From: a virus
Lineage: Duplodnaviria > Caudoviricetes
Strand: one strand, 5' to 3'
DNA length: 64,000 bases
IMG/VR virus record: IMGVR_UViG_3300042090_001530
Location: 32,001 to 96,000 of that record
The notes under the pieces were generated by a model that had not been told where the DNA came from, ran no database searches, and saw only the letters and a list, made by a program, of their open reading frames with translations. Below, in pieces: positions 4,023 to 52,948 of the stretch. The position numbers and the translations under genes are program-made. Within the stretch, counting starts at the first letter, position 1. Each line of letters starts with the position of its first letter.

Positions 4023-4643
4023 GTGGATCGCTACGACACCCCCGGATGGGAAGGCTCGGTCGGCCCATTCCCCGACGACTACACCAAGCCCCACGTATAC
4101 GCACGCGACATCTGCTCCGGCGCCGGCAACTGCGTCTGCGGCATAGGGCTACCCGACGAGATCCACGTCCAAGCAGCGCCCGGCATCGACATCCCCGGGA
4201 GAGCAATCGTCGTCCCGTCCCGCTACCTGGGCAAGTCCGCCGAGGAACAGCGCTACGTGCTCGGCGTTGGGTATCAACCGGGCCCCGACCCGCGAATCGC
4301 CCGCGGCGCCGACGGGTACCGCGACTACTTCACTGCCGAGGAACTCGAGAAGGCCGCATGGTCCTTCCTCAAGAGCGGCGGCCAGATAGGGCTGTTCCAT
4401 GAGGACGGCACCCTCGGACATGCGACGCCCGTCGAAAGCTACGTGCATCGTGCCCCCGACTGGGATCAGGGCAACGGCATTGTCATCAAGACCGGCACCT
4501 GGCTCATCGGCGCCATCTGTGACGACATCGCGTGGCAGCTAGTCAAATCCGGACGTGTCACCGGCTTCTCGCCGCAGGGGTTCGCGAAGCGCCGTCGCCC
4601 CTCCATCCCACCGAACTCCACGAGGGAGCTGTGCCGTGTCTGA
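4023..4643 (+). CDS. XkdF-like putative prohead serine protease (Peptidase_S78_2-like)
   Basis: EEQRYVLGVGYQP...FTAEELEKAAWSF...IGLFH...VESY...GTW...VKSG..TGFSPQG. GGAGG precedes GTG 4023. Follows the portal. Confidence 0.8.
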   Translation: MDRYDTPGWEGSVGPFPDDYTKPHVYARDICSGAGNCVCGIGLPDEIHVQAAPGIDIPGRAIVVPSRYLGKSAEEQRYVLGVGYQPGPDPRIARGADGYRDYFTAEELEKAAWSFLKSGGQIGLFHEDGTLGHATPVESYVHRAPDWDQGNGIVIKTGTWLIGAICDDIAWQLVKSGRVTGFSPQGFAKRRRPSIPPNSTRELCRV

Positions 4644-6933
4644 CGCGCAACCGGAGGAGTGGACGGAACTCTACGACCCTGAGGTGCCAGAGATGCACAT
4701 GGTCGGCAAAGGGGCTAACGGCTTCCCCGAATTCCTGATCATCAAGCAGGACGCCGAGGGCGGCCTGTTCGAAGCCGACTACGTACGCGAACTCATTGCC
4801 AAGGCCGACGCGGAGCACCCCCCGGCCACTGACCCGCGGGAGACGGTGACCATGAGCGGCAGCCCCGCAGCGATCGCAGCACTCATCCACGGCGCCGCAG
4901 TGCGCAAGGCCACGCCGGAGCCTGCGCCCGTCGAAGACGACGTGGCCAAAGCGGAGGAATCCACCGCGACCCAGAACGACTTGCCCGACTCTGCCTTCGC
5001 GTACATCGAAAGCGGTGGCACGAAGGACGAGCACGGCCGCACCGTCCCGCGGTCCCTGCGGCACTTCAACATCCACGACGCCGCGCACGTCCGCAACGCC
5101 CTGAGTCGAGCACCGCAGTCCCCGTTCGGCGACAAGGCCATGCCCAAGATCCGCGCCGCCGCGAAGCGCTTCGGGGTCGACGTATCCAAGGCCGAACAGG
5201 CCGCCCCCGAAACCAACGAGGTGAGCAAAGACATGGACGGTTCCGCGGGCATGCCGCTGGACGAAGGCATGGACGGGATGGACCCGACGGTCATCCTCGC
5301 GATGCCCGAAGAGGAAGCCCCGGGCGACCCGAACGACCCCGGCTCCCCGGCATGGGAGTCGATCGACGCCGCGACGGCCCTCAAGTGGACCGCGATCGCC
5401 GCCCGGCTGCGCTCCGCCCTCGGCATCATGTCCGACCGGGAGATGCTCGAAGCCGCCACCGCCGACCCGTCCGACGCCGACAACGCGATGGATCTCGACG
5501 ACGCCGCGTGCGCCGTGGACTTCGTGATCTCGACGCTCGCCCCGTTCGCGGTCGACGAGCAGGCGGAAGCCGACGAGGGCACCATGGCGATGGAGATGGT
5601 CGGCAAGGCGATGAGCACCCTCGACCCGGCCCACCTCGACACCGTCGAGACCCTCGGCACCGTCCGCAAGGCCGGGCGCGCCCTGAGCTCCGCGAACGAG
5701 AGCGCACTGCGCGCCGCGGTCAAGGCGCTCCAGCAGATCCTCGCGTCGCTGCCCCGCGCGGCCGACGCGCCCGCCCCGGCATCCGAGGGCGCCATGACGA
5801 AGGAGAGCGGCCTGCCGGTCGCCAAGACCGCGAACGAGGAGCCCGACATGCCGCAGACCACGACCGCCGAAGACACCACCACCGCATCTGGGCAGGCGCC
5901 CGCCATGGGCAGTGCATCCCCGGACCCGCAGCCCGTCGCCGGGACCGCCGTCACCGACGTGACGAAGACCGCCGACGCGCCGGTCGACCAGGCGGCGTTC
6001 GCCGAGATCGTCAAGCAGCTCGCGGCCGTGCTCAACTCGCAGGCCCCGGTCGCCAAGACCGATGGTGCCGCGAATGCAGAGCAGACCCCGGCCGCGCCGA
6101 TCGCCAAGGCTGAGGAGACTACGGCCGTCGAGACTGCGGCGGACGAGCCCGTCATCAAGGCCGAGCAGCCCGCGACCCCCGACGCCGCGCCCGTCGCGGA
6201 GCCGGCCAACGTGCAGAAGGCTGAGAAGCCGCCGCAGGTGGCGATCTACGACGCCAACGGCAACCTCGTCGGCACCGTCGACCCCGGCGAGATCACCATG
6301 CTCGCCCCCGCCAGGGCCCCCGAGCCCGCAGCCAAGGCCGACGACGCGGCACCGGACGAGCCCGCGGCCCCCGCCGCCGAGGCCCCGGCCACCCCGCCCA
6401 CAGATCTCGCCCCGCAGCCTCCGGCCGCGGCAGGCGTACCCGCCGACGCCGTCCCCGCCGACGACGCCATGACCAAGCAGGCCGCCAACGGCCAGCCCGA
6501 CAGCAACACCGCGACGCTCGAAAGCAGCGCCCCCGCCGACATCCTCAAGCAGGCCCTCGCCGACTACAGCGCCACACAGGGGCAGGCACTCGCCGCCCAG
6601 ATGGCGGACGTCCGCAAGGGACTGGAGGACCGCAACGCGGCGCTGGAAGAGGTCGTCAAGAACCTCCAGGCACAGATCGAAGAGCGCATCACTCGCATCG
6701 AGAACGCCCCCCCCGTCTACGCCATCGCCTCCAACGGCGCCATGCCCGACCCGCGCCACCTGCGCGGCCAGAACCAGGGCGCCCTCGCGGTCGACCCGGC
6801 CATCGGCCCCATGCTCAAGGCCCGCCTCGCCAACAGCGACGACGCCACCGAGCAGAAGCAGATCGCCGACGAGATGACCGAACGGGCCAACACCCTGTTC
6901 CAGCAGCTCCAGGCAGGCGCCCGGCAGCGGTAA
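4636..6933 (+). CDS. Capsid scaffold/maturation protein
   Basis: Acidic Ala/Pro-rich protein with a C-terminal coiled coil, between protease and capsid. Contains a conserved-looking LPDSAFAYIE...RHFNIHDAAHVRNALSR domain. GTG start overlaps the upstream stop. Confidence 0.65.
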   Translation: MSDAQPEEWTELYDPEVPEMHMVGKGANGFPEFLIIKQDAEGGLFEADYVRELIAKADAEHPPATDPRETVTMSGSPAAIAALIHGAAVRKATPEPAPVEDDVAKAEESTATQNDLPDSAFAYIESGGTKDEHGRTVPRSLRHFNIHDAAHVRNALSRAPQSPFGDKAMPKIRAAAKRFGVDVSKAEQAAPETNEVSKDMDGSAGMPLDEGMDGMDPTVILAMPEEEAPGDPNDPGSPAWESIDAATALKWTAIAARLRSALGIMSDREMLEAATADPSDADNAMDLDDAACAVDFVISTLAPFAVDEQAEADEGTMAMEMVGKAMSTLDPAHLDTVETLGTVRKAGRALSSANESALRAAVKALQQILASLPRAADAPAPASEGAMTKESGLPVAKTANEEPDMPQTTTAEDTTTASGQAPAMGSASPDPQPVAGTAVTDVTKTADAPVDQAAFAEIVKQLAAVLNSQAPVAKTDGAANAEQTPAAPIAKAEETTAVETAADEPVIKAEQPATPDAAPVAEPANVQKAEKPPQVAIYDANGNLVGTVDPGEITMLAPARAPEPAAKADDAAPDEPAAPAAEAPATPPTDLAPQPPAAAGVPADAVPADDAMTKQAANGQPDSNTATLESSAPADILKQALADYSATQGQALAAQMADVRKGLEDRNAALEEVVKNLQAQIEERITRIENAPPVYAIASNGAMPDPRHLRGQNQGALAVDPAIGPMLKARLANSDDATEQKQIADEMTERANTLFQQLQAGARQR

Positions 6934-7014: not shown

Positions 7015-8517
7015 ATGAGCGCCCTCATGCAGGACGTGACCGAGGAGACCATCGCCGCGATCAGCAAGGCTCAGACCGCGGGCATCCTTGAGAACACGGG
7101 TATTTACAGCTATGACCTGTCCGAGCTCGTCACCCTGATCCCCGTGGTGACGCCCTTCCGGGACCACGTGTCGCGGAAGCAGTCCCCTGATGGTAACCCG
7201 TTTGCCGTATGGCGAGCGATCATGAACCTGACGGACAGCCAGCCCGACCCGTCCATGGGCTTCGACTACGCAGCCAACGAAGCCCTGTTCGACGAGCAGG
7301 ACTTCCAGGCCCGATACAAGCCCACCGGCCTCGCCGGCCTCGTCACCCAGGACGCGTTCGACCTCGCCAAGGGATACGCCGACCCGTATGCGGTCGCCAC
7401 CTTCAACGTCCTGAACCAGGTCCTGATCGGCGACGACCGCAAGCTCCTCGGCGGCCAGTCCTTCGCCCTCGCCGCCTCCACCGCGCCCACCATCACCCAG
7501 CACGCCACCGGCGGCACCATCGGCGCCGTCACCCCCTACGTCGGCGTCGCAGCGCGAACCGGCTCCGGCTACTACTACGGCTCCGGCAACAGCCAAGGCG
7601 CATCCAACAGCACCACCTTCGGCTCCGGCAGCACCAACTCGCTCACCGCCAGCACCACCGCGCAGCGCGGCGCCGTCGCCTACGACTGGTTCCAGTCGCC
7701 CACCGGGCTCGCCGGCTCGTGGCTCTACTACACCACCACCACCGTCAACACCGTGACGATGACCTCCATCATCACCTCCCCCAACGCCCTACCCGCCACC
7801 CTGCCCGACCTCCAGACCAACTTCTGGAAGGGCTCCAACACCAGCGCCACCCCCACCTACAACGCCGCCGCCGACAACGGCAGCGCCAACGCCCCCGACT
7901 ACGACGGATTCCTCGCGAGCCTCTCTGGCGACTTCAGCGGCACCGGCCAGTGGGTCCAGCCCGGCACCGGCACCGCCAACCCCAGCGTCGTCAACACCCT
8001 CAACGGCGCCGCCCTCACCCTCACCGGCGGCAGCATCACCGAGATCGAGCAGCTGCTGTTCCTGCCGCTGTGGAACCAGGTCAAGACGTCGCCCACCGCG
8101 CTCATGGTCAACGCCGCGCAGGCTCAGGAGATCGCCAACCTCGTCCTCGGCTCCAACAGTGCGACCACCTTCCTCAACACCGACGCATCCGGCCGTATCT
8201 CCGTCACCGCTGGTGGCCGGGTCGGCGAGATCGTCAACGCCCCGGCAGGCGGCGTCACCGTGCCCATTGAGGTGCACGTTTCCCTGCCGCCTGGCACCAT
8301 CATCGCCCGCAGCGACCGGGTCCCGTTCCCGCAGGCGAACATCGCATCAGTGCTCGAATACAGGGCGCTGCGCGATACGGCGCAGTACGACTACGGGATC
8401 TCCCGCATCGCGGGAACCCCCGGCGGAGGCCCTCGCCGTGAATTCGAGATCAGGAGCGTGGGTGCCTTCCTGAATCGTGCGCCCGTAGCGAACGCGGTAC
8501 TCAACTGCATTTCGTAG
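7015..8517 (+). CDS. Major capsid protein with Thr/Gly/Ser-rich insertion
   Basis: 500 aa, AGAAAGAGG RBS, follows the scaffold and precedes a terminator. Family assignment is mainly positional. Confidence 0.7.
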   Translation: MSALMQDVTEETIAAISKAQTAGILENTGIYSYDLSELVTLIPVVTPFRDHVSRKQSPDGNPFAVWRAIMNLTDSQPDPSMGFDYAANEALFDEQDFQARYKPTGLAGLVTQDAFDLAKGYADPYAVATFNVLNQVLIGDDRKLLGGQSFALAASTAPTITQHATGGTIGAVTPYVGVAARTGSGYYYGSGNSQGASNSTTFGSGSTNSLTASTTAQRGAVAYDWFQSPTGLAGSWLYYTTTTVNTVTMTSIITSPNALPATLPDLQTNFWKGSNTSATPTYNAAADNGSANAPDYDGFLASLSGDFSGTGQWVQPGTGTANPSVVNTLNGAALTLTGGSITEIEQLLFLPLWNQVKTSPTALMVNAAQAQEIANLVLGSNSATTFLNTDASGRISVTAGGRVGEIVNAPAGGVTVPIEVHVSLPPGTIIARSDRVPFPQANIASVLEYRALRDTAQYDYGISRIAGTPGGGPRREFEIRSVGAFLNRAPVANAVLNCIS

Positions 8518-8564
8518 GCCCCACCTGCGGTGATGTGACCCGTCCGTCAGTGCACTGACGGAAA

Positions 8565-8783
8565 ATGTGGTATCCTGGCAGTAGCGAAAACCACTACTGC
8601 CAGGGGCCAATAATGAAGATCAAGCGTGGGGATCCCTGCATATTCCTGGCGAACGGACCGATCGCTGATGGTCTCGATGTTCATCACAAGTGCCTGAGAC
8701 GAAGTTGCGTGCGCGAATCCCACTTGGACGCGATTTCGCGTTCCGAGAATCTGCGCTTGCGCGCGAACCGAAGAGACGAATAG
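8565..8783 (+). CDS. Small, probably degenerate HNH endonuclease
   Basis: LDVHHKCLRRSCVRESHLDAISRSEN resembles the HNH_3 core. Locally lower GC. Confidence 0.5.
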   Translation: MWYPGSSENHYCQGPIMKIKRGDPCIFLANGPIADGLDVHHKCLRRSCVRESHLDAISRSENLRLRANRRDE

Positions 8784-8809
8784 CAGCAGCCTGCGGGCTG
8801 CGTTCCCGA

Positions 8810-8838
8810 GGCCGGAAGCATCCGCTTCCGGCCTTTTT
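8810..8838 (+). terminator. Intrinsic terminator
   Basis: GGCCGGAAGC-ATCC-GCTTCCGGCC-TTTTT. Confidence 0.8.
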
Positions 8839-8879
8839 GCATGCCCGCGCGGCCCGCCGCGCCATCTCAAGGAGGCTCT

Positions 8880-9566
8880 ATGCCCACGCAGCTTGTGACT
8901 GGCGGCCCGAACGGCCCGCTGGCGGCCGAGACGACCGGCGACACGATGAACGGCCCGCTGACGTTGTCCAACCAGAGCGCGGGGCCGGGCGCGACTGCCG
9001 GGGCCGCATCGTTGTATGCGGTCGGCGGCCAGGCGACGTCGGTGAACCCGCAGGGTCTGGTGTCGACGCTGGTCGGTTCGCAGGGTGGCCTGCTTACTGC
9101 GGGTCTGGTGACGGTCGCGAACACGGCGACTGAGTCTCTGGTGTACGGCGTGTCGATTCCGGCGGGGGACCCGGTGGCGGGGTCGGTGTACCGGCTGGAG
9201 GCGTGGGGTGTGTTCAGCGCCACGAGCACGCCGACGATCGCGTTCACGTCGCGTCTGGGCGGCACGTCGGGTACGTCGCTGGCGGCGCTTCCGGCGTTCA
9301 CGCTGGCGGCGCTGACATCGGCGCCGTGGAAGATCAGGGCGGTTCTGAACTTCCTGTCGGCGACGACCGCGCAGTGTCTGCTGGAGGTCGATCTGGATTC
9401 TTCGACGTCGAGCGACGTGGCGGGGCGTTTCATCTCGACCCCGACCGCTGCGGTGACTGTGGCGACCGCCACTGCGAAGGTGTGGCAGATCGACGTGACG
9501 TGGGGTACTGCGGCGGCGGGCAACACCCTCAGCCTGCTGGGCGGCTACAGCGAGCGGGTCGCGTAG
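8880..9566 (+). CDS. Virion structural protein (decoration/fibre-like), function unknown
   Basis: AAGGAGG RBS. Thr/Ala/Gly-rich beta-type sequence within the head-neck cluster. Confidence 0.55.
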   Translation: MPTQLVTGGPNGPLAAETTGDTMNGPLTLSNQSAGPGATAGAASLYAVGGQATSVNPQGLVSTLVGSQGGLLTAGLVTVANTATESLVYGVSIPAGDPVAGSVYRLEAWGVFSATSTPTIAFTSRLGGTSGTSLAALPAFTLAALTSAPWKIRAVLNFLSATTAQCLLEVDLDSSTSSDVAGRFISTPTAAVTVATATAKVWQIDVTWGTAAAGNTLSLLGGYSERVA

Positions 9567-9646
9567 ATCATCAGTGGCTTGTCGCCGCGCCTGGCGGTGC
9601 GGCGCGTGCTGGCCATGCAGCTTCAGCGCTGCGTTCTATCGCGATG

Positions 9647-9676
9647 GGCCGGAAGCCTCCCCGCTTCCGACCCTTT
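9647..9676 (+). terminator. Intrinsic terminator-like hairpin, near-copy of 8810-8838
   Basis: GGCCGGAAGC-CTCCCC-GCTTCCGACC-CTTT. Confidence 0.6.
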
Positions 9677-11845: not shown

Positions 11846-12301
11846 GTGTCTGATCCTCTGCTGTCGATGGGGTTCGCTGACATCGCAAAGGCGGCGGGTG
11901 AACTTGACGGCCTGGATGTCATCGAGGCGATGCGGGGCTGGGGCGCCGAGTGGGGTCCGAAGATGGTTCAGGCGATCCAGGCCGTGGTGCCCGGTGATAG
12001 CGGCGGCCCGCTGGAGCAGTCGATCACGTTCGCGGGCGTTGAGGCGGCGTCGGGCGGCGTGACGTTGTCGTGGACGACGGATAAGGATTACGCGGTCTAC
12101 CTGATCGAGGGCACGGAGGCGCACGGCCCGGCGCAGGCGAGCGTCATGCACTGGTCGGCGGGCGGCACCGACGTGTTCGCGAAGTGGGTGTCGGGGGTTG
12201 CGCCGAATACTTTCCCGCTGTCGACGGCGGTTGAGGGCTTGATGCCTGCGATGGCTGATTCGCTGGCTGACCTGCTTGCCGATCTGTCCAAGGAGTCCTG
12301 A
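11846..12301 (+). CDS. HK97 gp10-like neck/tail completion protein
   Basis: DYAVYLIEGT motif; size and position. Confidence 0.55.
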   Translation: MSDPLLSMGFADIAKAAGELDGLDVIEAMRGWGAEWGPKMVQAIQAVVPGDSGGPLEQSITFAGVEAASGGVTLSWTTDKDYAVYLIEGTEAHGPAQASVMHWSAGGTDVFAKWVSGVAPNTFPLSTAVEGLMPAMADSLADLLADLSKES

Positions 12302-12543
12302 TGGCTGCCGCTAACACTAAGAAGACCGCTGCCGCTCCGGAGAGCGCTGAGGCGGCGGACGCCGATGTCGCGGAGCCCGAGGCGCCTGCGTCGCTGGTGT
12401 CGGTGCGGTTCAACTGGCCTGTCGCCCACGCCGTCGCGGGCATGGGCACGTGCGAGCCGGGCGAGGTGCGCGAGGTGTCTGAGGCGGTTGCCGCGGATCT
12501 GTGTCGGGGCGATGTGCCGCTGTTCGTGCGCACGTCCGAGTAG
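12301..12543 (+). CDS. Small hypothetical protein
   Basis: 80 aa, TGATG coupling. Confidence 0.55.
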   Translation: MAAANTKKTAAAPESAEAADADVAEPEAPASLVSVRFNWPVAHAVAGMGTCEPGEVREVSEAVAADLCRGDVPLFVRTSE

Positions 12544-14792: not shown

Positions 14793-17700
14793 GTGGCGTC
14801 TTCAAGCTCCGAGATAACCGTGTTGCTGATGCTCGAGGCGATCGATAAGGCCTCCGGGATCCTCGAGGCCATCGGCGGCAAAATGGAGGCCCTCGGGGAC
14901 GCGGCGCAGGAGGCCGCGGACAAGGCGTCGCTGTCCGGCGACGAGCTCGAGTCGATGCAGGTGCGCGCGGAGGCGGCGGCGAACGCTGCGGCGGCCGCGC
15001 AGGACGCGCAGGCTGCGGCGCTGGATCGGCTCGCGGTTTCGACGCAGGCGGTAAAGGACGCGCAGTCGGCGCAGGTTGCCGCTGCCGCAGAGGCTGCGGA
15101 GGCGTCCGGGGGCTACGCGGACGAGGTCATCGCACAGTACGCCGCGATGTCTGAAGCCGCCGCTGCAGACGCTGCGGCCGCAGAAGCGTCTGGCGCGAAG
15201 ATCGAGGAACTGCAGGAGACGCTCACCAGGGTGAGCGGGGCTGCGGCCGAGTCAGTAGAGGCCGCACTGGATCGCGAGGCGGCCTCGTTCGTCGAACTGT
15301 CCGAGGTGGCGCGGGTCAGCGCGGACACGCTGGCAGAGGCGTTCTCGGACACGGACGCGAAAGCACTGGCGTCGGCGACGGCGCAGGCGACTGCTGCGCA
15401 GGAGGCGGCTGACGCGACGAAGGCCGCAGTGGCCGAGCAGGTCGCGGCGCTTGACGCGCTCAAGGACGCCGAGACGGACCTCGCAGCGCGCACGGCGCAG
15501 TCGGATGCGGCGCAGGACGCGGCGAACACGAGCCTCGACCTGTCGGGCGCTGCGATGAAGGGCGTTACGACAACCGCCCTGGTGACGGCGGCTGCGGTGG
15601 CCGGCATCGGCTACGAGTCGGTGAAGGCTGCGGCGAGTTTCCAGTCGGCGACGAGTGTGCTGGTCACCTCTGGCGGCGAGACGACGCAGAACATCGCGAT
15701 GGTGCGTCAGGGGATTCTGAACCTGGCCTCGTCTACGGGTACTGCGACATCGGAACTGACGTCCGGCATGTACATGATCGGCAGCGCCGGCTATACGGGC
15801 GCGGTCGGCTTGAACGTCCTGAAGTCGGCCGCCGAGGGCGCGAAGGCCGAGAACGCCGATCTCGGGACTGTCAGCAACGCCCTGACGACGGTCCTGACGG
15901 ACTACTACGGCAAGAGTCTCACGGCCGCGCAGGCGACGAAGGACTCGACCGCCGCGATGAACCAGATGATCGCGGTGGTGCAGAACGGCAAGACGACGAC
16001 GGAGGCCCTGTCGGGCGCGCTGTCGACCGTGCTGCCGATCGCGGCGCAGACGGGCCTGAGTTTCACCCAGGTCGGCGGCGCGATCGCGACGATGACTGGT
16101 GAGGGCATCAGCGCGCAGCAGGCTACCCAGGATCTTGCGAGCACCATCACGCACCTGCAGAACCCGTCGAACGTGATGGTCAACGAGATGGCCGCGATGG
16201 GCCTGAACGCGTCCAGCGTGTCGAAGAACCTGGGCAAGGAGGGCTTGACCGGCACGGTTGCGGAACTCACCGGCGCGATCACCTCGCACATGGGGCCGGC
16301 CGGAACCGTCCTGCAGTCCGCGTTCAACCAGTCTTCGGCTGCCGCGCAGGACGCTCAGGTCGAGTTCACCCACCTGGGCACGGCGGCGCAGGCCCTGGCC
16401 AAGCAGTACGAGAACGGTTCGATCGGGGAGAAGGCCTACCGCACGGACGCACAGGCGCTCGGCGGCACGCAGGGCGCGCTGGCCCTGCAGTTCGAGACCG
16501 CCTACAACAAGTCAAAGGGCTTCAACGACACACTGACCTCGGGTTCGCCTGCCGCGCAGACGTACATCCAGGCCCTGTCGAAAATGACCGGCACGTCCGA
16601 GGGCTTGAGCACGGTGCTCGCCCTGAGCGGCTCGCATTCGGCGGAGTTCGCCCAGAACGTGAAGGCCGTCGGGGCCGCGGCGACCACGGCCGGTTCGAAC
16701 GTCAACGGCTGGTCGACGATCCAGGGCAACATGAATCAGCGGCTTGATGAATTGAAGGAGACTGTCGAGGCCGCGTCGATCCAGCTCGGTACGGCTCTGC
16801 TGCCGATCGTGACCAAGATCCTTGATGTGGTCATGCACATCCTGACCCCGATCGCGACGTGGATCGAGCACAACAAGACCCTTGCGGCGATCATCCTGCT
16901 GGTGGTCGGCGGCCTGGCGATCCTGATCACGACGATGGTCGCGGTCGCCAAAATCGTCAAGGCCGTCGGTGAGGCGTGGACGACCCTCGGCCGTGCGCTC
17001 GGGCTCATCGGCGAGGAGACGACGACCGCAGCAGCCGAGACCGAAGCCGCCGGGGACACGATCGCGGCGGCGGGCGAGACCGCGGACGTGGCGTGGGGCC
17101 CGTGGCTGATCGCGATCGCGGCGATCGGGATTGCGGCGTACGAGATCGTCGAGCACTGGTCCACCGTCAAGCGCTGGCTCGCGGACTTCTGGGGCTGGGT
17201 CAAGCAGATCTTCGATGACGTGGTCGGGTTCGTGAAGGGCCACGTCAACGAGGTCGCCGGGGCCATGGCGGCACTACTGGGGCCCCTGGGGATCCTGCTC
17301 GCGGTCGCGCTGGAGATCGTGACGCACTGGAAGGCCGTCGAGAAGCTCCTCGCGGACGTGTGGGACTGGATCAAGGGCGCCGCGTCGGACGTCGCCGGGG
17401 CCGTGTCGAAGGCGTGGGGCGACGCGATCAAGCTGGTCGACGCCCTGTGGCGGCTGCAGATCGACGAACTCAAGGCGATCTGGGACGGCATCGAGACGGC
17501 GTGGGACGACACCGGCGGCAAGGCCATCACCGCGATCAAGCGTGCGTGGGACGAGGTCTCGGCGGCGTTCGATAAGGAATGGACCAAGATCTCCGGCGAC
17601 CTGTCGTCGATCTGGGGGTCGCTGGTCGAGATCTGGAACGCGACGGGTGGCGCCCTGATCTCGGCGATCATGGACGGGACGCGCGACGTCATCGATTTCG

Positions 17701-18941
17701 TGAGCGCGAACTGGTCGACGATCGTCGATATCGTCGAGGACGCGCTGCGGCCGCTGGTGGCGGCCGCGAAGGCGCTCTGGGACGCCACGGTCGAGGTTTT
17801 CACGGTCGCGTTCGGCGTGATCCGCGGGATCGCGCGGGCGCAGTGGGAGATCGTGTCGGCGATCTTCACGGCCACGTTCGACGTGATCAGGGGGGTCACG
17901 GAGGCCGCCTGGGATGCCATCTCCGGGGCCTTCAAGGCGGCGTGGGATGTGATCCGCGGCATCGTGCAGGTCGGCTGGGCTGTCGTCTCCGGGATGTTTA
18001 CCGCGTCATGGGACGTGATCGTCGGGTCCGTCAATGCCGGCTGGGACGTCGTGTCCGGAATCTTCAAGGCTTCGTGGGACGTGATCGTCGGGTTGGTGAG
18101 GGCGGCGTGGGACCTGATCACCACGGCCTTCAACGTGTCCCTCGATCTGCTGAAGGGGATCGTCGCCGGGTTCGCGGATCTGCTGACCGGCCAGTGGGGC
18201 AAGCTGTGGAACGACGTCAAGTCGACGTTCGACAGCGTGTGGAACGACATTTCGGGGTTTTTCAAGGAGATCCTCGGCGATATCGAGTCGACCGTGTCCG
18301 GCGCGGTCTCGCACATCTGGTCCGGGTTCATCGGCGCGATCCACAGCGCCCTGTCCGGCATCGAGGCCGCCCTCAAGGCCGTGTGGAACACGATCGTCAC
18401 CGCTTTCGACGATGCGAGTACCTGGCTGCTGGACGCGGGCGAGGCTATCATCGACGGCCTCGTCAAGGGCGTGGAGAACATGGCTGGGGCCGCGGTCGCG
18501 GCCGTGAAGAACGTGGGCTCGGACATCATCAAGGGCGCGAAAGACGTCTTGTCGATCTTCTCTCCGTCGCAGGAGTTCGCGGACATCGGCGGCATGACGA
18601 TCGCGGGTTTCGTGCAGGGCATCGAGGATGCGGCCCCGACGCTGCACGCGGCGATGGCGAAAGCGGCCTCGTCGATCACGGGGCCGTCGATCACGGCGAA
18701 CCTGACGGCGGACGCCAGGTCGAGCGGCTCAGCGATCGTGTCCGCCGCGGCGGCCGGGATCGGCGCCGCGGCGGGCGGCGGCGGGGGAGCCGGGTCGGGC
18801 GGCGTGACGGTGATCGTGCAGGGCGGGAACACGCTGATGACCGACTCGGACATCAACAAGTTCGCGCAGAAGATCGGCGGCGTGATCGCGAAGACGACGC
18901 TGAACCAGGGCGGAGTCAAGATCCAGCTGGCTGGCCGGTAG
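14793..18941 (+). CDS. Tape measure protein
   Basis: 1382 aa Ala-rich helical protein with a TP901-type core and ~11-residue Trp/Phe repeats in the C-half. Confidence 0.95.
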   Translation: MASSSSEITVLLMLEAIDKASGILEAIGGKMEALGDAAQEAADKASLSGDELESMQVRAEAAANAAAAAQDAQAAALDRLAVSTQAVKDAQSAQVAAAAEAAEASGGYADEVIAQYAAMSEAAAADAAAAEASGAKIEELQETLTRVSGAAAESVEAALDREAASFVELSEVARVSADTLAEAFSDTDAKALASATAQATAAQEAADATKAAVAEQVAALDALKDAETDLAARTAQSDAAQDAANTSLDLSGAAMKGVTTTALVTAAAVAGIGYESVKAAASFQSATSVLVTSGGETTQNIAMVRQGILNLASSTGTATSELTSGMYMIGSAGYTGAVGLNVLKSAAEGAKAENADLGTVSNALTTVLTDYYGKSLTAAQATKDSTAAMNQMIAVVQNGKTTTEALSGALSTVLPIAAQTGLSFTQVGGAIATMTGEGISAQQATQDLASTITHLQNPSNVMVNEMAAMGLNASSVSKNLGKEGLTGTVAELTGAITSHMGPAGTVLQSAFNQSSAAAQDAQVEFTHLGTAAQALAKQYENGSIGEKAYRTDAQALGGTQGALALQFETAYNKSKGFNDTLTSGSPAAQTYIQALSKMTGTSEGLSTVLALSGSHSAEFAQNVKAVGAAATTAGSNVNGWSTIQGNMNQRLDELKETVEAASIQLGTALLPIVTKILDVVMHILTPIATWIEHNKTLAAIILLVVGGLAILITTMVAVAKIVKAVGEAWTTLGRALGLIGEETTTAAAETEAAGDTIAAAGETADVAWGPWLIAIAAIGIAAYEIVEHWSTVKRWLADFWGWVKQIFDDVVGFVKGHVNEVAGAMAALLGPLGILLAVALEIVTHWKAVEKLLADVWDWIKGAASDVAGAVSKAWGDAIKLVDALWRLQIDELKAIWDGIETAWDDTGGKAITAIKRAWDEVSAAFDKEWTKISGDLSSIWGSLVEIWNATGGALISAIMDGTRDVIDFVSANWSTIVDIVEDALRPLVAAAKALWDATVEVFTVAFGVIRGIARAQWEIVSAIFTATFDVIRGVTEAAWDAISGAFKAAWDVIRGIVQVGWAVVSGMFTASWDVIVGSVNAGWDVVSGIFKASWDVIVGLVRAAWDLITTAFNVSLDLLKGIVAGFADLLTGQWGKLWNDVKSTFDSVWNDISGFFKEILGDIESTVSGAVSHIWSGFIGAIHSALSGIEAALKAVWNTIVTAFDDASTWLLDAGEAIIDGLVKGVENMAGAAVAAVKNVGSDIIKGAKDVLSIFSPSQEFADIGGMTIAGFVQGIEDAAPTLHAAMAKAASSITGPSITANLTADARSSGSAIVSAAAAGIGAAAGGGGGAGSGGVTVIVQGGNTLMTDSDINKFAQKIGGVIAKTTLNQGGVKIQLAGR

Positions 18942-34502: not shown

Positions 34503-35891
34503 TTAGGCGGCAAGCGCGACTAGGCCGGCTGCGGCCCACGCCGCGGCGACCGCGTTCGCCTGCCGCTGGTCGAGTTCCGGAAGCAGGTGCCCGTAGGTCT
34601 TGTCGGTGGTGATGACGCTCTCATGCCCGAGCCGCCGGGCGATCGCCGAGAGCGGCACGTTCCCGGCGATCTGCCATGCCACGTGCGTGTGGCGCAGGTC
34701 GTGGATGCGCGGAACCTTGCGCAGGGTGCCCTCGCAGCCGCATGGGCGCAGCCAGTACTGACGCAGATCTCGGCGGATCTGGCGCAGGTGGATGCGCTCC
34801 CCGTCGAGCACCATCCCCTCCTCGCGGTCCTGCACGCGATGCTCCTCGCAGCGCACGGCCCGGTAGACGGTCGGCTGCCACGCCAGGGAGAAGAAGCTGG
34901 AGTGGAACCAGGGTCCGCCCTCGGCCGCCGTGAACAGGAACGCGCCCGGCGCGCAGCCCTCGGCCGCTGCGGCGAACGCGGCGTCGACGTACGGGTCCAG
35001 GGTGATCCGTCGCCGCCCCGCCGTCGACTTCGGCTCCTTGAGCCTGCGCCCGCCCTCGATGGTCTGCCAGGAGCGCTGGACCTGGGTGGCGCCCGGCGCC
35101 CAGTCTCCGGCCTGCTGTGCGGCCATCTCCGAGAACCGCATGCCGGTCCCCGCGAACGCGATCAGGATCGGGCGGTGCTCCGGCTTCGCGGCGGCGAGCA
35201 GCAGCGCGAACTCGACCGGGGTGAGGAACACCATCTCCTCGCCGGTCGCGTCGTCCAGCCGCGGCAGCCTAGTGTCGGCGCACGGGTTGAACCTGCGCAG
35301 CGGGCGCTCGCCGCGGGTGGCGGACTCGGCGATCGAGTACAGCAGGCCGTGCGCGTTGGCGATGGTCTTCGGGGACTTGGGGGTGCGCAGCCAGGCGAGT
35401 TCGTTCTCCGGGTCGCGCACGCCGGCCTCGAGCCAGTTGACCCAGGCTGCGACGTCGCGTTCGCTGAACGTGTCGAGGTCGGCGAGGTCGGCGTCGGCGA
35501 GTTGCGGGAACACGGCGAAGTAGTTGGCGATGAGGCGGTGGTAGTCGGCGCGGGTCTTGGCCTGGATGCCGGTGAGGTGGTTGACGTAGTCGGTGGCGTA
35601 GTCGAGCAGCGGCTTGGGTTCGCCGCGCGAGGTTTCGGCCTGCAGGAGCGCTGCGGTCCTGGTGGCGGTGGCGAACTGTTCGGGGGTGACGTAGCCGTGC
35701 CTAGCGATGTAGTTGGGGGGCCAGTGCTGCCCGTGGAAGTCGACGTCGTTCTTGAAGTGCTCGGCTGCGGCGAGGTCGGTGCCGAAGGGCTCGCGTTCGC
35801 GCTTGCCGCCGCGCCTGCCGCCTTCGATCCACGCGACGCGGTAGGTGGTGGTGGTCTTGTTGACCCGGGTTTCGATGGTCGCCATGTCCAC
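34503..35891 (-). CDS. int: Tyrosine integrase
   Basis: GTGMRFSE (R), EPKS (K), IHDLRH (HxxR), RLGH, TYGHL (Y); N-terminal arm-binding-like domain; Cys/His insertion. Confidence 0.95.
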   Translation of the reverse strand: MDMATIETRVNKTTTTYRVAWIEGGRRGGKREREPFGTDLAAAEHFKNDVDFHGQHWPPNYIARHGYVTPEQFATATRTAALLQAETSRGEPKPLLDYATDYVNHLTGIQAKTRADYHRLIANYFAVFPQLADADLADLDTFSERDVAAWVNWLEAGVRDPENELAWLRTPKSPKTIANAHGLLYSIAESATRGERPLRRFNPCADTRLPRLDDATGEEMVFLTPVEFALLLAAAKPEHRPILIAFAGTGMRFSEMAAQQAGDWAPGATQVQRSWQTIEGGRRLKEPKSTAGRRRITLDPYVDAAFAAAAEGCAPGAFLFTAAEGGPWFHSSFFSLAWQPTVYRAVRCEEHRVQDREEGMVLDGERIHLRQIRRDLRQYWLRPCGCEGTLRKVPRIHDLRHTHVAWQIAGNVPLSAIARRLGHESVITTDKTYGHLLPELDQRQANAVAAAWAAAGLVALAA

Positions 35892-50165: not shown

Positions 50166-50612
50166 ATGACCACGAACGACGTACTCCTCCCGACCGCCGA
50201 CCCGGCCAAGGCGCTCCTCGCCGAACTCACCGGGCCCGCCACAATCGAGCAGTTGCTCGGGCGGGCCGAGCGCAACGGCACCAAGCGGGCCCGGCTCGTC
50301 GCTGCAAGGATCCGGCACGACGCCGATCTCCTCGAGCAGCTGCTCGCGCAGCATGGCGAAGAGGCCGTGGCGCGCCGGAAGGTCGACCGGCTGCGCGCCC
50401 AGCTCAAGGCGGCCGAAGCCGAACTGCGCGCGAAGACCGACCCGGAGCGCAACATCGCCCGACTCGCCGGCCCCAACCAGCCGGCACCGGCCGCGACCAC
50501 CAAGGTCATGCGCGCCTGGCTGATCGAGCAGGGGCACGAAGTCTCGGACCGCCGGCGCCTGACCGCCGCACAGATCGGGCAGTACGAGGCCGCGCACCGG
50601 GGCGCCGAATGA
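50166..50612 (+). CDS. Protein with C-terminal Lsr2-like DNA-binding domain
   Basis: KVMRAWLIEQGHEVSDRRRLTAAQIGQYEAAH resembles the Lsr2 C-domain. Confidence 0.75.
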   Translation: MTTNDVLLPTADPAKALLAELTGPATIEQLLGRAERNGTKRARLVAARIRHDADLLEQLLAQHGEEAVARRKVDRLRAQLKAAEAELRAKTDPERNIARLAGPNQPAPAATTKVMRAWLIEQGHEVSDRRRLTAAQIGQYEAAHRGAE

Positions 50613-51184
50613 CCACCACCTTCGATCCCGGCGACGGCCGCGACTACCTCGCCGAGATGAGCGCGCTCATCGATGGCGCGCTGCCCGACGGCGAATACAT
50701 CGCGCCCCTCGTCGCGCACGACCTGATCGAGAAGCTCAGGGCCAACGACGGCGAGCTCCTCGCCGGATGGCTCAACATGCGGGCCGAGGTCACTATGACC
50801 GCCTACATCTCGGATCGGATCAAGAACCGTCGCCAGTCGAGTCGGGAGTCTGCCGCCCGGTCCACGTTCGGCGAGGCTGCTGAGCGGTTCGCGGTGGGCG
50901 GCGACGGTGCCACGATGCGCGCCGCAGTACTGACGCGGCCGTTCGATGCCGAGTACGTCGTGAACTGTGAACTGCTGCGACGCAGGGTTGCGGAGATGAC
51001 TGGAGCCGACCACATCTTCGTCGCCAAGGAGTACGCCGAGACGAAGCAGACGGCGAGGCTCCTGGAGTCCTTCCATCGCGCGGTCGCCAAGAAAGTCGGC
51101 GACCAGAAGACGAAGGACGTTTTCACCGAGGGCCAGTACGTCGAGATGTACCGGTCGATCACCCGCCGCGAGTTGGCGGTCTAA
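50609..51184 (+). CDS. Hypothetical protein immediately upstream of the pentamer array
   Basis: 191 aa, ATGA coupled; its stop is 7 nt before the array. Confidence 0.7.
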   Translation: MTTTFDPGDGRDYLAEMSALIDGALPDGEYIAPLVAHDLIEKLRANDGELLAGWLNMRAEVTMTAYISDRIKNRRQSSRESAARSTFGEAAERFAVGGDGATMRAAVLTRPFDAEYVVNCELLRRRVAEMTGADHIFVAKEYAETKQTARLLESFHRAVAKKVGDQKTKDVFTEGQYVEMYRSITRRELAV

Positions 51185-51190
51185 GCGCGC

Positions 51191-51745
51191 ATGACAACCC
51201 TCACCGAATCACTTCAGCGCGCCGACTACCCGAGCCATCTCCTTGCCAACGCTGTCCTTCCCTTGCCGACGACCCATTTCTACGCAGTGCAGCCCCACGC
51301 AGTGCCATCCGACCCCCGTCGACGAGTCGCCCCTGGCCGACATGTCTCCGCCCAGCGCTGCCCCTACCGACTGCCCAGCGCATCGCGTCCCGTGCCATTT
51401 CGGCTCGTCCTGCTCCTGCCCCGCGCGCACCGACTTCCCAGCCCCGCGCGCCTCGTCGCACTCCAGCCCGCATCGACCACCCGGCCCACCTCACCGTGTC
51501 GCGCCCTGCCCCCTTCCATTCCCTGCCGACAACCCAACTCCCATCGCGCATGCCGTCCCGCCGCCTACCGACTACTCAGCCCACCGAGGCTCACGTCACC
51601 CCTCTTCGACTACACAAGCCCGCACCGCACTCCCCGAACCCTCGCGACTACCCATCCCGGCCCCGAACGTGCCTTCGCACCCCCACCTGGCCCTCGCTGA
51701 CTACCCAGCCCCCGACAGGCCGACAACTCCACATCCCTCACCACG
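51191..51745. repeat. Non-coding array of ~13 NNGAC-NACCC-anchored units with a 5-nt NN/C-rich lattice (candidate guide-RNA array)
   Basis: Anchors at 51191, 51222, 51266, 51309, 51337, 51367, 51430, 51473, 51526, 51568, 51606, 51644, 51697; most spacings are 5n+3. Confidence 0.85.
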
Positions 51746-51767
51746 TGACGAACCGAAAGGCTCTGAC

Positions 51768-52442
51768 ATGACCTCCGTCTTCGCCAAGCACATCCCCCAG
51801 GCGTGGCCCCACCGCTACAGCGGCACGCTGCACATCGTCACCCTCGCGGGCGGCACTCCCAGCGACCCCAATGTCGCCGAAGGCTGGCTCCGCACGAAGC
51901 TCGCCGACAAGAACGACCTCATCCGCGACGCTGTCGCCGAGGTCATGGTTGAGCGCGGCATCACCGCAGAGGAAGCCGCGAAGGAACTCGACCGGCTCAA
52001 GCACTTGAACGGCTTCAAGAAGGACCCTGAGCGTGGCGGAGAGCTCTACATCGAAGGCCGGCAACTCAAAGCCGGAATTAAGGAGGCGGCGTCCGTCGCG
52101 CGCGCGGTTGGGAAGCTCCCGGACCGCTGGGGCCTGACGAAGAAGGGCATCGTCAACTTCGTTGCCGAGCACATCCAGGTCGTTGAAGACCGGCTGCACC
52201 TCGGAGTCACCGAACCCAGCGACGTGCTTCAGTCCTTCCCAAAGAACGCGCGCACCGGGCAAACCGGAATCCAATACACCGAGATCATCCTGGACGCGAA
52301 GCTCGACTTCACGATCATCAGCGACTACAAGTTCAGCGACGACGAGTGGGCGATGCTCTGGCTCACGGCTGAGCAGCAGGGCATCGGCGCGTCCCGCTCG
52401 CAGGGCTTCGGTCGATACGAGGTCGTCAGGTGGGATTCGTGA
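51768..52442 (+). CDS. Stand-alone Cas7/RAMP-like protein
   Basis: 224 aa, GAAAGG RBS. N-terminal strand TLHIVTLAGG, ELYIEGRQLKAGIKEAA helix motif, terminal Gly-rich loop GIGASRSQGFGRYEV. Confidence 0.8.
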   Translation: MTSVFAKHIPQAWPHRYSGTLHIVTLAGGTPSDPNVAEGWLRTKLADKNDLIRDAVAEVMVERGITAEEAAKELDRLKHLNGFKKDPERGGELYIEGRQLKAGIKEAASVARAVGKLPDRWGLTKKGIVNFVAEHIQVVEDRLHLGVTEPSDVLQSFPKNARTGQTGIQYTEIILDAKLDFTIISDYKFSDDEWAMLWLTAEQQGIGASRSQGFGRYEVVRWDS

Positions 52443-52948
52443 CCACCCCGCAGGGCGCGGAGAGGCGCCCGGGGGGCCTAGGCGTCCCCGCCCGCGTCCG
52501 CCTCTCGCGCACCAAAGGCTTCCGGCTCCAGCAGTACGCGCCCGGCGCCATCGTCGTGCGTCGCCCCACGCGTTGGGGCAACCCGTTCACGGTTGCCGAC
52601 GCGCTCGCCGACGACCCGGCACTCACGGCGGCCCAGGCGCGGCAACGCTGCGCCGAGTTCTTCGACTTGTGGCTCGACGGGGAGATCGAACTCAGCGACC
52701 CGGCACTGGCCGAGCGCCGAGCCTGGATCCTCGAGCACATCCAGGAACTCGAAGGTCACCCGCTCGCCTGCACATGCCCCGAGGCCGTGCCAGGCGAGCC
52801 TGACTGGTGCCATGCCGTCAGCCTGATCCGCCGAAGCAACCCGCCGCAGCCGGTCGGCGAGTGCGGTGACGGCCTGTTCGCGGCCCCCGTCCGGCTGCGG
52901 CACGTCGTGCCCGTGAAGCTGCGGCGGGACGGGGCGGCGCGCCTATGA
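52439..52948 (+). CDS. DUF4326-like protein
   Basis: VRRPTRWGNPF...LEGHPLACTC...CHAVSL. Confidence 0.8.
   Translation: MTTPQGAERRPGGLGVPARVRLSRTKGFRLQQYAPGAIVVRRPTRWGNPFTVADALADDPALTAAQARQRCAEFFDLWLDGEIELSDPALAERRAWILEHIQELEGHPLACTCPEAVPGEPDWCHAVSLIRRSNPPQPVGECGDGLFAAPVRLRHVVPVKLRRDGAARL

Follow-up and report, generated by a model that had tools for sequence, protein, structure and literature searches.

A probable VIPR system with a C-rich guide array in a temperate actinophage

VIPR systems

Systems known as VIPR (Viral Interference Programmable Repeat) are found mainly in viruses and proviruses. As laid out in the discovery preprint (bioRxiv 10.64898/2026.04.26.720920), each contains a lone minimal RAMP protein, Vipr, along with vrRNAs encoded in long intergenic stretches and, as a rule, a single accessory gene, vap. 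Each vrRNA consists of 9–16 five-base repeats, each made up of a fixed GGY triplet and two variable bases (NN). The same preprint names five founding Vipr seeds in the AlphaFold DB (AFDB): X1U2U4, A0A0F9A1L0, A0A661D0E2, A0A1F4YLN4, and A0A2D6XG06.

A total of 670 Vipr proteins have been published, and VIPR types run from I to VII; the best-studied examples are the type II systems of Escherichia phage SUSP1 and of a Pseudomonas fulva prophage (10.64898/2026.04.26.720920, 10.64898/2026.04.26.720927, 10.64898/2026.10.15.759431). Triplet reading has been described for SUSP1 Vipr (10.64898/2026.04.26.720927): H17 and D177 read G1; R138 and W178 read G2; and Y3 occupies a pocket closed to purines, of which R179, stacking on Y3, is a part. 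Other triplets are also on record. A genomic language-model survey (10.64898/2026.10.21.760802) describes 21 clusters of noncanonical Vipr-linked arrays, including GAC/NN, CAC/NN, WGT/NN, and TGH/NN, so departure from GGY is already known in principle.

The actinophage locus

The DNA analyzed here (the window) is a stretch of 64,000 nucleotides from a 202-kb virus genome that CheckV rates as 98% complete. G+C content is 66–71% across the window. The integrase and tape measure genes (Table 1) bear out the description of a temperate actinophage given in the first-pass annotation; tail genes are also present in the record.

That annotation, made from the letters alone, singled out a stop-free reading frame of 224 codons and called its product an orphan minimal RAMP of Cas7-like type. 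The observation is confirmed, and proteins of this kind have already been described in the 2026 preprints: the gene is very likely the Vipr of a VIPR system in a temperate actinophage, equipped with a guide array and an accessory gene, and filament-based silencing is its most likely activity. It is no orphan: directly upstream lie its own array, with a 5-nt period, and a partner gene that is conserved. The clade to which it belongs is distinguished by a C-rich NYC/NN array; apparently tail-less, abutting guides; exchanged base-reading residues; and an accessory gene of its own.

Table 1. Features of the locus and its phage, in window coordinates
Feature	Coordinates	Strand	Basis
Tape measure gene	14793–18941		
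Integrase	34503–35891		
191-aa all-helical gene, candidate vap-like VIPR accessory	50609–51184	+	Synteny, AF2 model
Putative guide-RNA array, C-rich, 5-nt periodic	51191–51745	+	Autocorrelation, head phasing, synteny
Clean array unit, 12 NN pairs	51369 (start)	+	Head phasing
Clean array unit, 8 NN pairs	51432 (start)	+	Head phasing
Clean array unit, 10 NN pairs	51475 (start)	+	Head phasing
Clean array unit, 7 NN pairs	51570 (start)	+	Head phasing
Clean array unit, 7 NN pairs	51608 (start)	+	Head phasing
Clean array unit, 10 NN pairs	51646 (start)	+	Head phasing
Ribosome-binding site GAAAGG	51755–51760	+	7 nt 5' of the vipr ATG, read from the sequence
Probable vipr (P0001), 224-aa minimal RAMP protein	51768–52442	+	Translation, AF2 model, structure matches, family size
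Helix-1 motif LYIEGRQLKAGIKEAA, residues 93–108, putative RNA-binding	52044–52091	+	Conservation; hhalign to SUSP1 helix-1
Glycine-rich loop GIGASRSQGFGRYEV, residues 205–219	52380–52424	+	Conservation; alignment to SUSP1 G-loop

Like the SUSP1 and P. fulva systems, this phage carries a minimal RAMP that stands alone and combines one RRM core, a thumb, and a glycine-rich loop of the form GxG(x5-6)FGR[FY]xV; it also has a two-gene unit flanked by arrays of fixed triplets and variable dinucleotides. Unlike in those systems, the array lies between the two genes and not outside them. No cas gene adjoins vipr, and the locus consists of vipr and one accessory gene. Neither Cas10, a small subunit, nor a CRISPR array was found near vipr in the window; likewise, the genes called around vipr in annotated related loci (designated here by L numbers) include no Cas10 or other type III subunit family.

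The partner gene travels with vipr. Of 34 related loci whose flanking sequence suffices, 33 have a homologue of it, at 28–77% identity, directly upstream of vipr or of the array. The protein has 52 database homologues, all without names, and no Pfam or PHROG match. Its AlphaFold2 (AF2) model is all-helical (pLDDT 86), and Foldseek searches of the PDB and AFDB returned nothing better than E 0.14. It is unrelated to the SUSP1 accessory protein vap1 (hhalign probability 0.2%). Its position and conservation make it a candidate accessory gene of this Vipr clade.

Other genes in the vipr neighborhood encode RusA, a C5 methylase, an Lsr2-like protein, DUF4326, DUF6011, and a GIY-YIG protein. The DUF4326 gene (52430–52948) overlaps the end of vipr, starting 13 nt before the vipr stop codon, and the two look translationally coupled. 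However, DUF4326 adjoins vipr only in the closest relative, L014, and therefore is not part of the VIPR unit.

A compact CRISPR-like locus is present elsewhere in the same phage genome, on the minus strand and outside the window (G000:C1, about 177,900–181,300; L055, 9910–13284). It contains a 595-aa TnpB/Cas12f-like gene (OrfB_IS605 and Cas12f1-like TNB); a 399-aa Cas1; and an array of about 6.5 repeats with a period of 61 and a unit of about AGATCTTCCCGTGCGCTCGCGGGCCAGAC. Together these may make up a type V-like system, carried by the phage and including an adaptation gene. The locus is unrelated to the VIPR module.

The Vipr family

Sequence searches of Vipr against Pfam, PHROG, and the PDB gave nothing meaningful, the best match being ANTAR at E 0.05. 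The Pfam RAMP family, PF03787, did not match Vipr at E up to 10, nor did it match anywhere in the 202-kb genome. Vipr belongs to a family that has no name, with at least 1384 members of about 220–250 aa in a collection clustered at 90%; a profile search of a library clustered at 50% recovered 682 clusters at E ≤0.001. Homologues have the amino-terminal sequence MTSVFA in common. Named sources include Streptomyces and Streptacidiphilus. Related loci were recovered from Nocardiopsis, Actinomadura, and Streptosporangium; from one Jatrophihabitantaceae and one Nanopelagicales MAG; and from 33 viral contigs in IMG/VR. One related prophage locus, L001, lies in Streptomyces sp. NBC_01485.

Two source labels deserve comment. 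A tblastn search of 50,697 phage records found a single match, "Microcystis phage Mae-JY09" (PP395641.1; L048), which has an actinophage-type vipr and a C-rich array. Its G+C content of about 72% in 4.2 kb is odd for a Microcystis phage, and the host label is questionable. The vipr of L004, 90% identical, lies on a 9.7-kb contig that was binned as Burkholderiaceae and probably is a mis-binned phage contig.

The two motifs quoted in the first-pass annotation are real, and both are conserved down to 31% identity. Among 26 homologues at 65–89% identity, residues G205, G207, R210, S211, Q212, and G215 in the glycine-rich loop, and R98, K105, and E106 in the helix-1 motif, are invariant. G205 and R210 show no variation even among 34 more distant homologues (31–50% identity), in which G207, G215, K101, K105, and E106 are kept at 90% or more; the loop thus persists throughout. 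This conservation indicates that LYIEGRQLKAGIKEAA and GIGASRSQGFGRYEV are more than chance resemblances. The helix-1 motif may resemble the IPGSSLKG-type motif of type III and type VII backbone subunits. The candidate for the catalytic aspartate of Csm3 and Cmr4, in the loop after strand 1, is D33, which is invariant in the 26 close homologues but replaced in several of the 34 distant ones, and so is not conserved in the wider Vipr family.

The RAMP fold

The AF2 model of Vipr, built from a 26-sequence alignment, has a mean pLDDT of 79.7 and a pTM of 0.72; residues 30–49 are poorly defined. Foldseek found 132 matches in the PDB at E ≤0.001. The best 50 of these all are class 1 CRISPR effector complexes with Cas7-type RAMP subunits, of types III-A, III-B, and VII, with E values down to 9.5e-7. 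VIA-align, which is independent of Foldseek, was run against 48,161 representative chains. Its top match is 9g9a_D from the Enterococcus italicus type III-A Csm complex (Z 9.7, rmsd 3.8, 152 residues), followed by 8yhd_A, a chain of a type VII complex (Z 9.6). Further down are chains from type III-B Cmr, type IV, and Cas7-11 complexes; Cas6 chains also appear, at Z about 6.5. In both searches, identity between Vipr and any effector subunit is 8–21%.

Three structure searches agree (Foldseek against the PDB, Foldseek against AFDB, and VIA-align): the predicted fold is that of a RAMP, built around one RRM core, with a thumb and a loop rich in glycine. The model matches only RAMP proteins, in keeping with the minimal RAMP of Cas7-like shape that had been proposed, and the comparison with AlphaFold and Foldseek suggested at that time has yielded only RAMPs among its best structural matches. 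Neither of the two outcomes that the annotation had named as refuting its reading, best matches outside the RAMPs or a glycine-rich loop that varies among homologues, came about.

Shape and membership are different matters. Vipr resembles Csm3, Cmr4, and type VII Cas7 in overall RAMP fold and in its glycine-rich loop, and these provide its best PDB matches. Unlike Csm3 and Cmr4, it has no PF03787 match, and its array has a period of 5 nt rather than 6 nt. Moreover, the discovery preprint (10.64898/2026.04.26.720920) places Vipr outside Cas5, Cas6, and Cas7, so that membership in the Cas7 type, as first assigned, finds no support.

The AFDB search points instead to Vipr. Clusters ranked 1, 2, 3, 6, and 8 are represented by A0A2D6XG06, A0A1F4YLN4, X1U2U4, A0A661D0E2, and A0A0F9A1L0; the best match, A0A2D6XG06, has an E value of 2.5e-11 and 24% identity. 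These are the five seeds of the discovery preprint, and the search was made before the seed list was known. This is the strongest single evidence that the gene is a Vipr: ranked by structure search, its nearest relatives are Vipr seeds rather than CRISPR RAMPs.

Membership in Vipr rests on structure and locus, and not on sequence. The SUSP1 vipr gene was located in KT454805 (28474–29061, minus strand), and an hhalign comparison of the family with its product gave a probability of 4.9%, which establishes no sequence-level link to the characterized Vipr. Weak though it is, the alignment pairs helix-1 with the SUSP1 helix-1 sequence NGEMIEACIKS, and the glycine-rich loop GIGASRSQGFGRYEV with the SUSP1 G-loop GVGDWRPRFGRFSVE.

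A C-rich array

The interval between the partner gene and vipr spans 583 nt and is 49% C and 20% G. Autocorrelation of C shows peaks only at lags of 5, 10, 15, and 20; this periodicity (z = 6.0 against 2000 shuffles) is the highest of the whole window. The sequence CCGAC occurs in 10 copies in the array, where 2.1 are expected, and 10 of 19 head spacings take the form 3+5k (p = 0.0016). Read along the vipr strand, each unit of the array has the form GAC-NN-(NYC-NN)k and a length of 3+5k. Six units in the window are clean, with 7–12 NN pairs each. Guide length here, about 7–12 repeats, is close to the published 9–16.

Related loci allow the units to be phased on a larger scale. Across 350 CCGAC heads from 28 loci, two near-uniform positions are followed by three C-biased positions, at which C has frequencies of about 0.5, 0.6, and 0.8, with a phase reset of three bases at each head. 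The third base of the triplet is C or T in diverged loci, hardly ever a purine, and NN still is uniform. The second triplet base is a pyrimidine in 62% of cases in Mae-JY09 and in 79–93% in the other four diverged loci. A phased, C-rich, 5-nt array flanks vipr in about 30 loci; array length ranges from 0.4 to 1.9 kb, and in most loci the array precedes vipr. Both the phased 5-nt array and the three-part synteny are directly observed.

The canonical pattern is missing: between 51100 and 51800, neither strand contains a YNNGG run of four or more units. The opposite strand of the array reads GGN/NN. Like arrays in the language-model survey (10.64898/2026.10.21.760802), this one has a 5-nt period, lies beside a gene for a Vipr-like fold, and uses a non-GGY triplet, some of the surveyed triplets also ending in C. 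It differs from the GAC/NN arrays described there, since here GAC is the unit head only.

Other origins for the C-rich stretch were considered and rejected: a proline-rich ORF, because motif copies occur in all three frames; and a replication origin with iterons, because of the strong strand asymmetry and the 5-nt phasing. A "G-type" periodic match in L046 proved to be a pentapeptide-repeat gene.

Arrays vary in size and number. That of L037 (4076–6001) extends for about 1.9 kb. L040 (arrays at 5076–5926 and 8151–8951) and L033 (arrays at 9376–9676 and 12226–12426) have extra arrays some kilobases 3' of vipr; all are C-rich on the vipr strand. In L050, a distant relative, the two arrays open with one and the same leader of ~30 nt (1625–1665 and 2799–2835), CTCGCCTC(A/G)TAGATC(C/T)GCTACGCGACA, which contains a small GTAG...CTAC inverted repeat and could be a promoter or a processing signal. 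Eight of the 33 viral contigs (L015, L027, L031, L036, and L041–L044) end 45–400 nt 5' of vipr, in or at the array. The array probably is a frequent assembly break point, so this clade's arrays often would be missing from metagenomic contigs.

Guide strand and triplet reading

The C-rich, sense strand probably serves as the guide, its unit being NYC/NN instead of GGY/NN. Among the sequencing runs listed for this locus none is an RNA run, and the one run that contains all of it is a wetland metagenome, the probable source of the record. One argument is spatial. The array fills the gap from the partner stop codon to the vipr ribosome-binding site. Neither a promoter nor a terminator for antisense transcription would fit there; hence, the operon transcript must include the array. 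Loci with other arrangements also bear on orientation. In the Nanopelagicales locus L013, the array, vap, and vipr come, in that order, after a plus-strand intrinsic terminator (4312–4337) and a TAGAAT box. The Mae-JY09 array is situated 3' of vipr with its orientation unchanged, and a strong hairpin comes after it. The arrays that flank vipr in L050, one to each side, open with the same plus-strand leader. Every YNNGG run of SUSP1 has the orientation of vipr.

A second argument comes from the base-reading residues. The published residue numbering was confirmed on the SUSP1 sequence. By a weak profile alignment, D177, W178, and R138 map to A208, S209, and T171 here, and R179 maps to R210, an arginine that is invariant in this family. 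By motif alignment, H17 falls in a loop segment that is absent here. Retention of R210, together with replacement of the guanine readers, fits a unit with a strict pyrimidine as third base and with first and second bases other than guanine.

The opposite assignment, in which the antisense, G-rich strand serves as guide with a GGN/NN unit, is somewhat less likely. Such a unit would resemble the "NNNGG" variant in the discovery preprint (10.64898/2026.04.26.720920), and the published VIPR types are G-based.

With the sense strand as guide, the locus departs from SUSP1 and P. fulva in its vipr-strand triplet, which is NYC (C-rich) instead of GGY. It further departs from SUSP1 in that guides abut through the GAC head, with neither a 3' tail nor a pseudoknot. 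A broader proposal can be put forward tentatively, at somewhat less than even chances: the large actinophage Vipr clade may read a different alphabet, with sense, C-rich NYC guides that run head to tail, are separated by GAC, and lack a 3' tail; with the guanine readers exchanged; and with the pyrimidine-pocket arginine kept.

Target searches

The skip pattern is symmetric, so either choice of guide strand predicts the same DNA site. Exact matching with 1-nt skips in IMG/VR found nothing for the 12-NN guide of the window or for one of its 10-NN guides. With up to three mismatches allowed, the 12-NN guide has no match in 405 actinobacterial genomes: four with related loci (a Streptomyces record, Nocardiopsis, Streptosporangium, and Streptacidiphilus), and 401 from the order of the first of those four.

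A set of 149 guides, drawn from all loci, was compared with 0.64 Mb. Perfect skip-1 matches number 23, against 4–9 for shuffled guides, and other skip lengths give no excess. Seventeen of the 23 matches come from one L025 guide, which matches vipr in 17 loci at its conserved KVAEGWL codons; when matches are counted by distinct guides, the skip-1 excess vanishes and is not significant.

The L025 guide (5925–5965) is the last of its array, with the NN string AG-CA-CC-TC-GC-AC-TT. It skips each wobble base, and its sites include L025's own vipr as well as the window vipr (51870–51889). It recalls the anti-VIPR guides that have been described (10.64898/2026.10.15.759431), and could be anti-VIPR or autoregulatory, although its pattern is not distinguishable from chance.

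Proposed silencing and its alternatives

RNA binding, filament formation, DNA targeting, and silencing are proposed here by analogy with the SUSP1 and P. fulva systems. The unit would comprise the helical accessory gene, the guide array, and vipr, all on one strand. Vipr protomers presumably would assemble along the array RNA, each binding one 5-nt repeat. The fixed triplet would be held by helix-1, the thumb, and the glycine-rich loop, leaving the two variable bases free. The filament would pair NN with double-stranded DNA, skipping every third base, and this pairing would prevent a rival phage or some other mobile element from being transcribed. The earlier preference for steric or transcriptional blocking over cleavage agrees with the published VIPR mechanism.

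It is unlikely that the RAMP acts only on its own C-rich leader, as a Cas6-like endoribonuclease or as an anti-Rho coat, with no RNA-guided DNA targeting. A 555-nt array that is C-rich, G-poor, and situated within an operon is an ideal Rho substrate; the structural matches to Cas6 chains, and the want of targets for the window guides (exact matches in IMG/VR; 405 actinobacterial genomes), also fit such a role. Yet the combination of near-uniform NN and fixed triplets is the signature of a programmable guide, and not of a mere binding platform. Arrays also occur 3' of vipr and as extra copies, where antitermination of vipr would be senseless, and the nearest structural relatives are, again, the Vipr seeds.

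The decoy that the first-pass annotation offered as its own alternative finds no support, and has only a very slim chance of being correct. A solitary Cas7 would here serve as an anti-CRISPR: built into the backbone of a type III or type I effector complex of the host, it would poison that complex. Phages carry anti-CRISPRs, and the fold resembles that of Csm3 and Cmr4. However, low identity to effector subunits and the failure of PF03787 to match both speak against this, as does the ranking of published Vipr seeds, not host effector subunits, as nearest structural relatives. Furthermore, from Streptomyces to Nanopelagicales, members of the family go together with an array and a partner gene of their own, neither of which a decoy would need.

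That Vipr is instead a distant subunit of the phage's own CRISPR-like locus, whose Cas1, 61-nt-period array, and 595-aa Cas12f/TnpB-like gene share the 202-kb record, is extremely unlikely: the two loci are about 95 kb apart; type V effectors are not known to use a RAMP subunit; and the module lies beside its partner and array in every related locus examined, where the called neighbors include no cas family.

Implications

A VIPR system, silencing through a guide filament, accordingly is the favored account of this locus. VIPR is a class only months old, known from preprints and proposed as ancestral to the CRISPR RAMPs. Experiments so far concern the E. coli and Pseudomonas systems, with their GGY/NN guides. 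The actinophage locus represents a large high-GC clade (at least 1384 proteins; 682 clusters at 50% identity), drawn from Streptomyces, Nocardiopsis, Actinomadura, Streptosporangium, Nanopelagicales, and many phages of soil and wetland. For those who annotate phage genomes, a "solo Cas7" call should prompt a look for a 5-nt array and a partner gene.

This clade appears to have kept the Vipr scaffold while altering the triplet that is fixed, the residues that read its bases, and the way guides are built. With three changes on a kept scaffold, it offers a natural test of how triplets are read and how guides are delimited. If the proposed alphabet is correct, then the Vipr scaffold would be retunable to other fixed triplets, and guide boundaries would be set without a structured handle.
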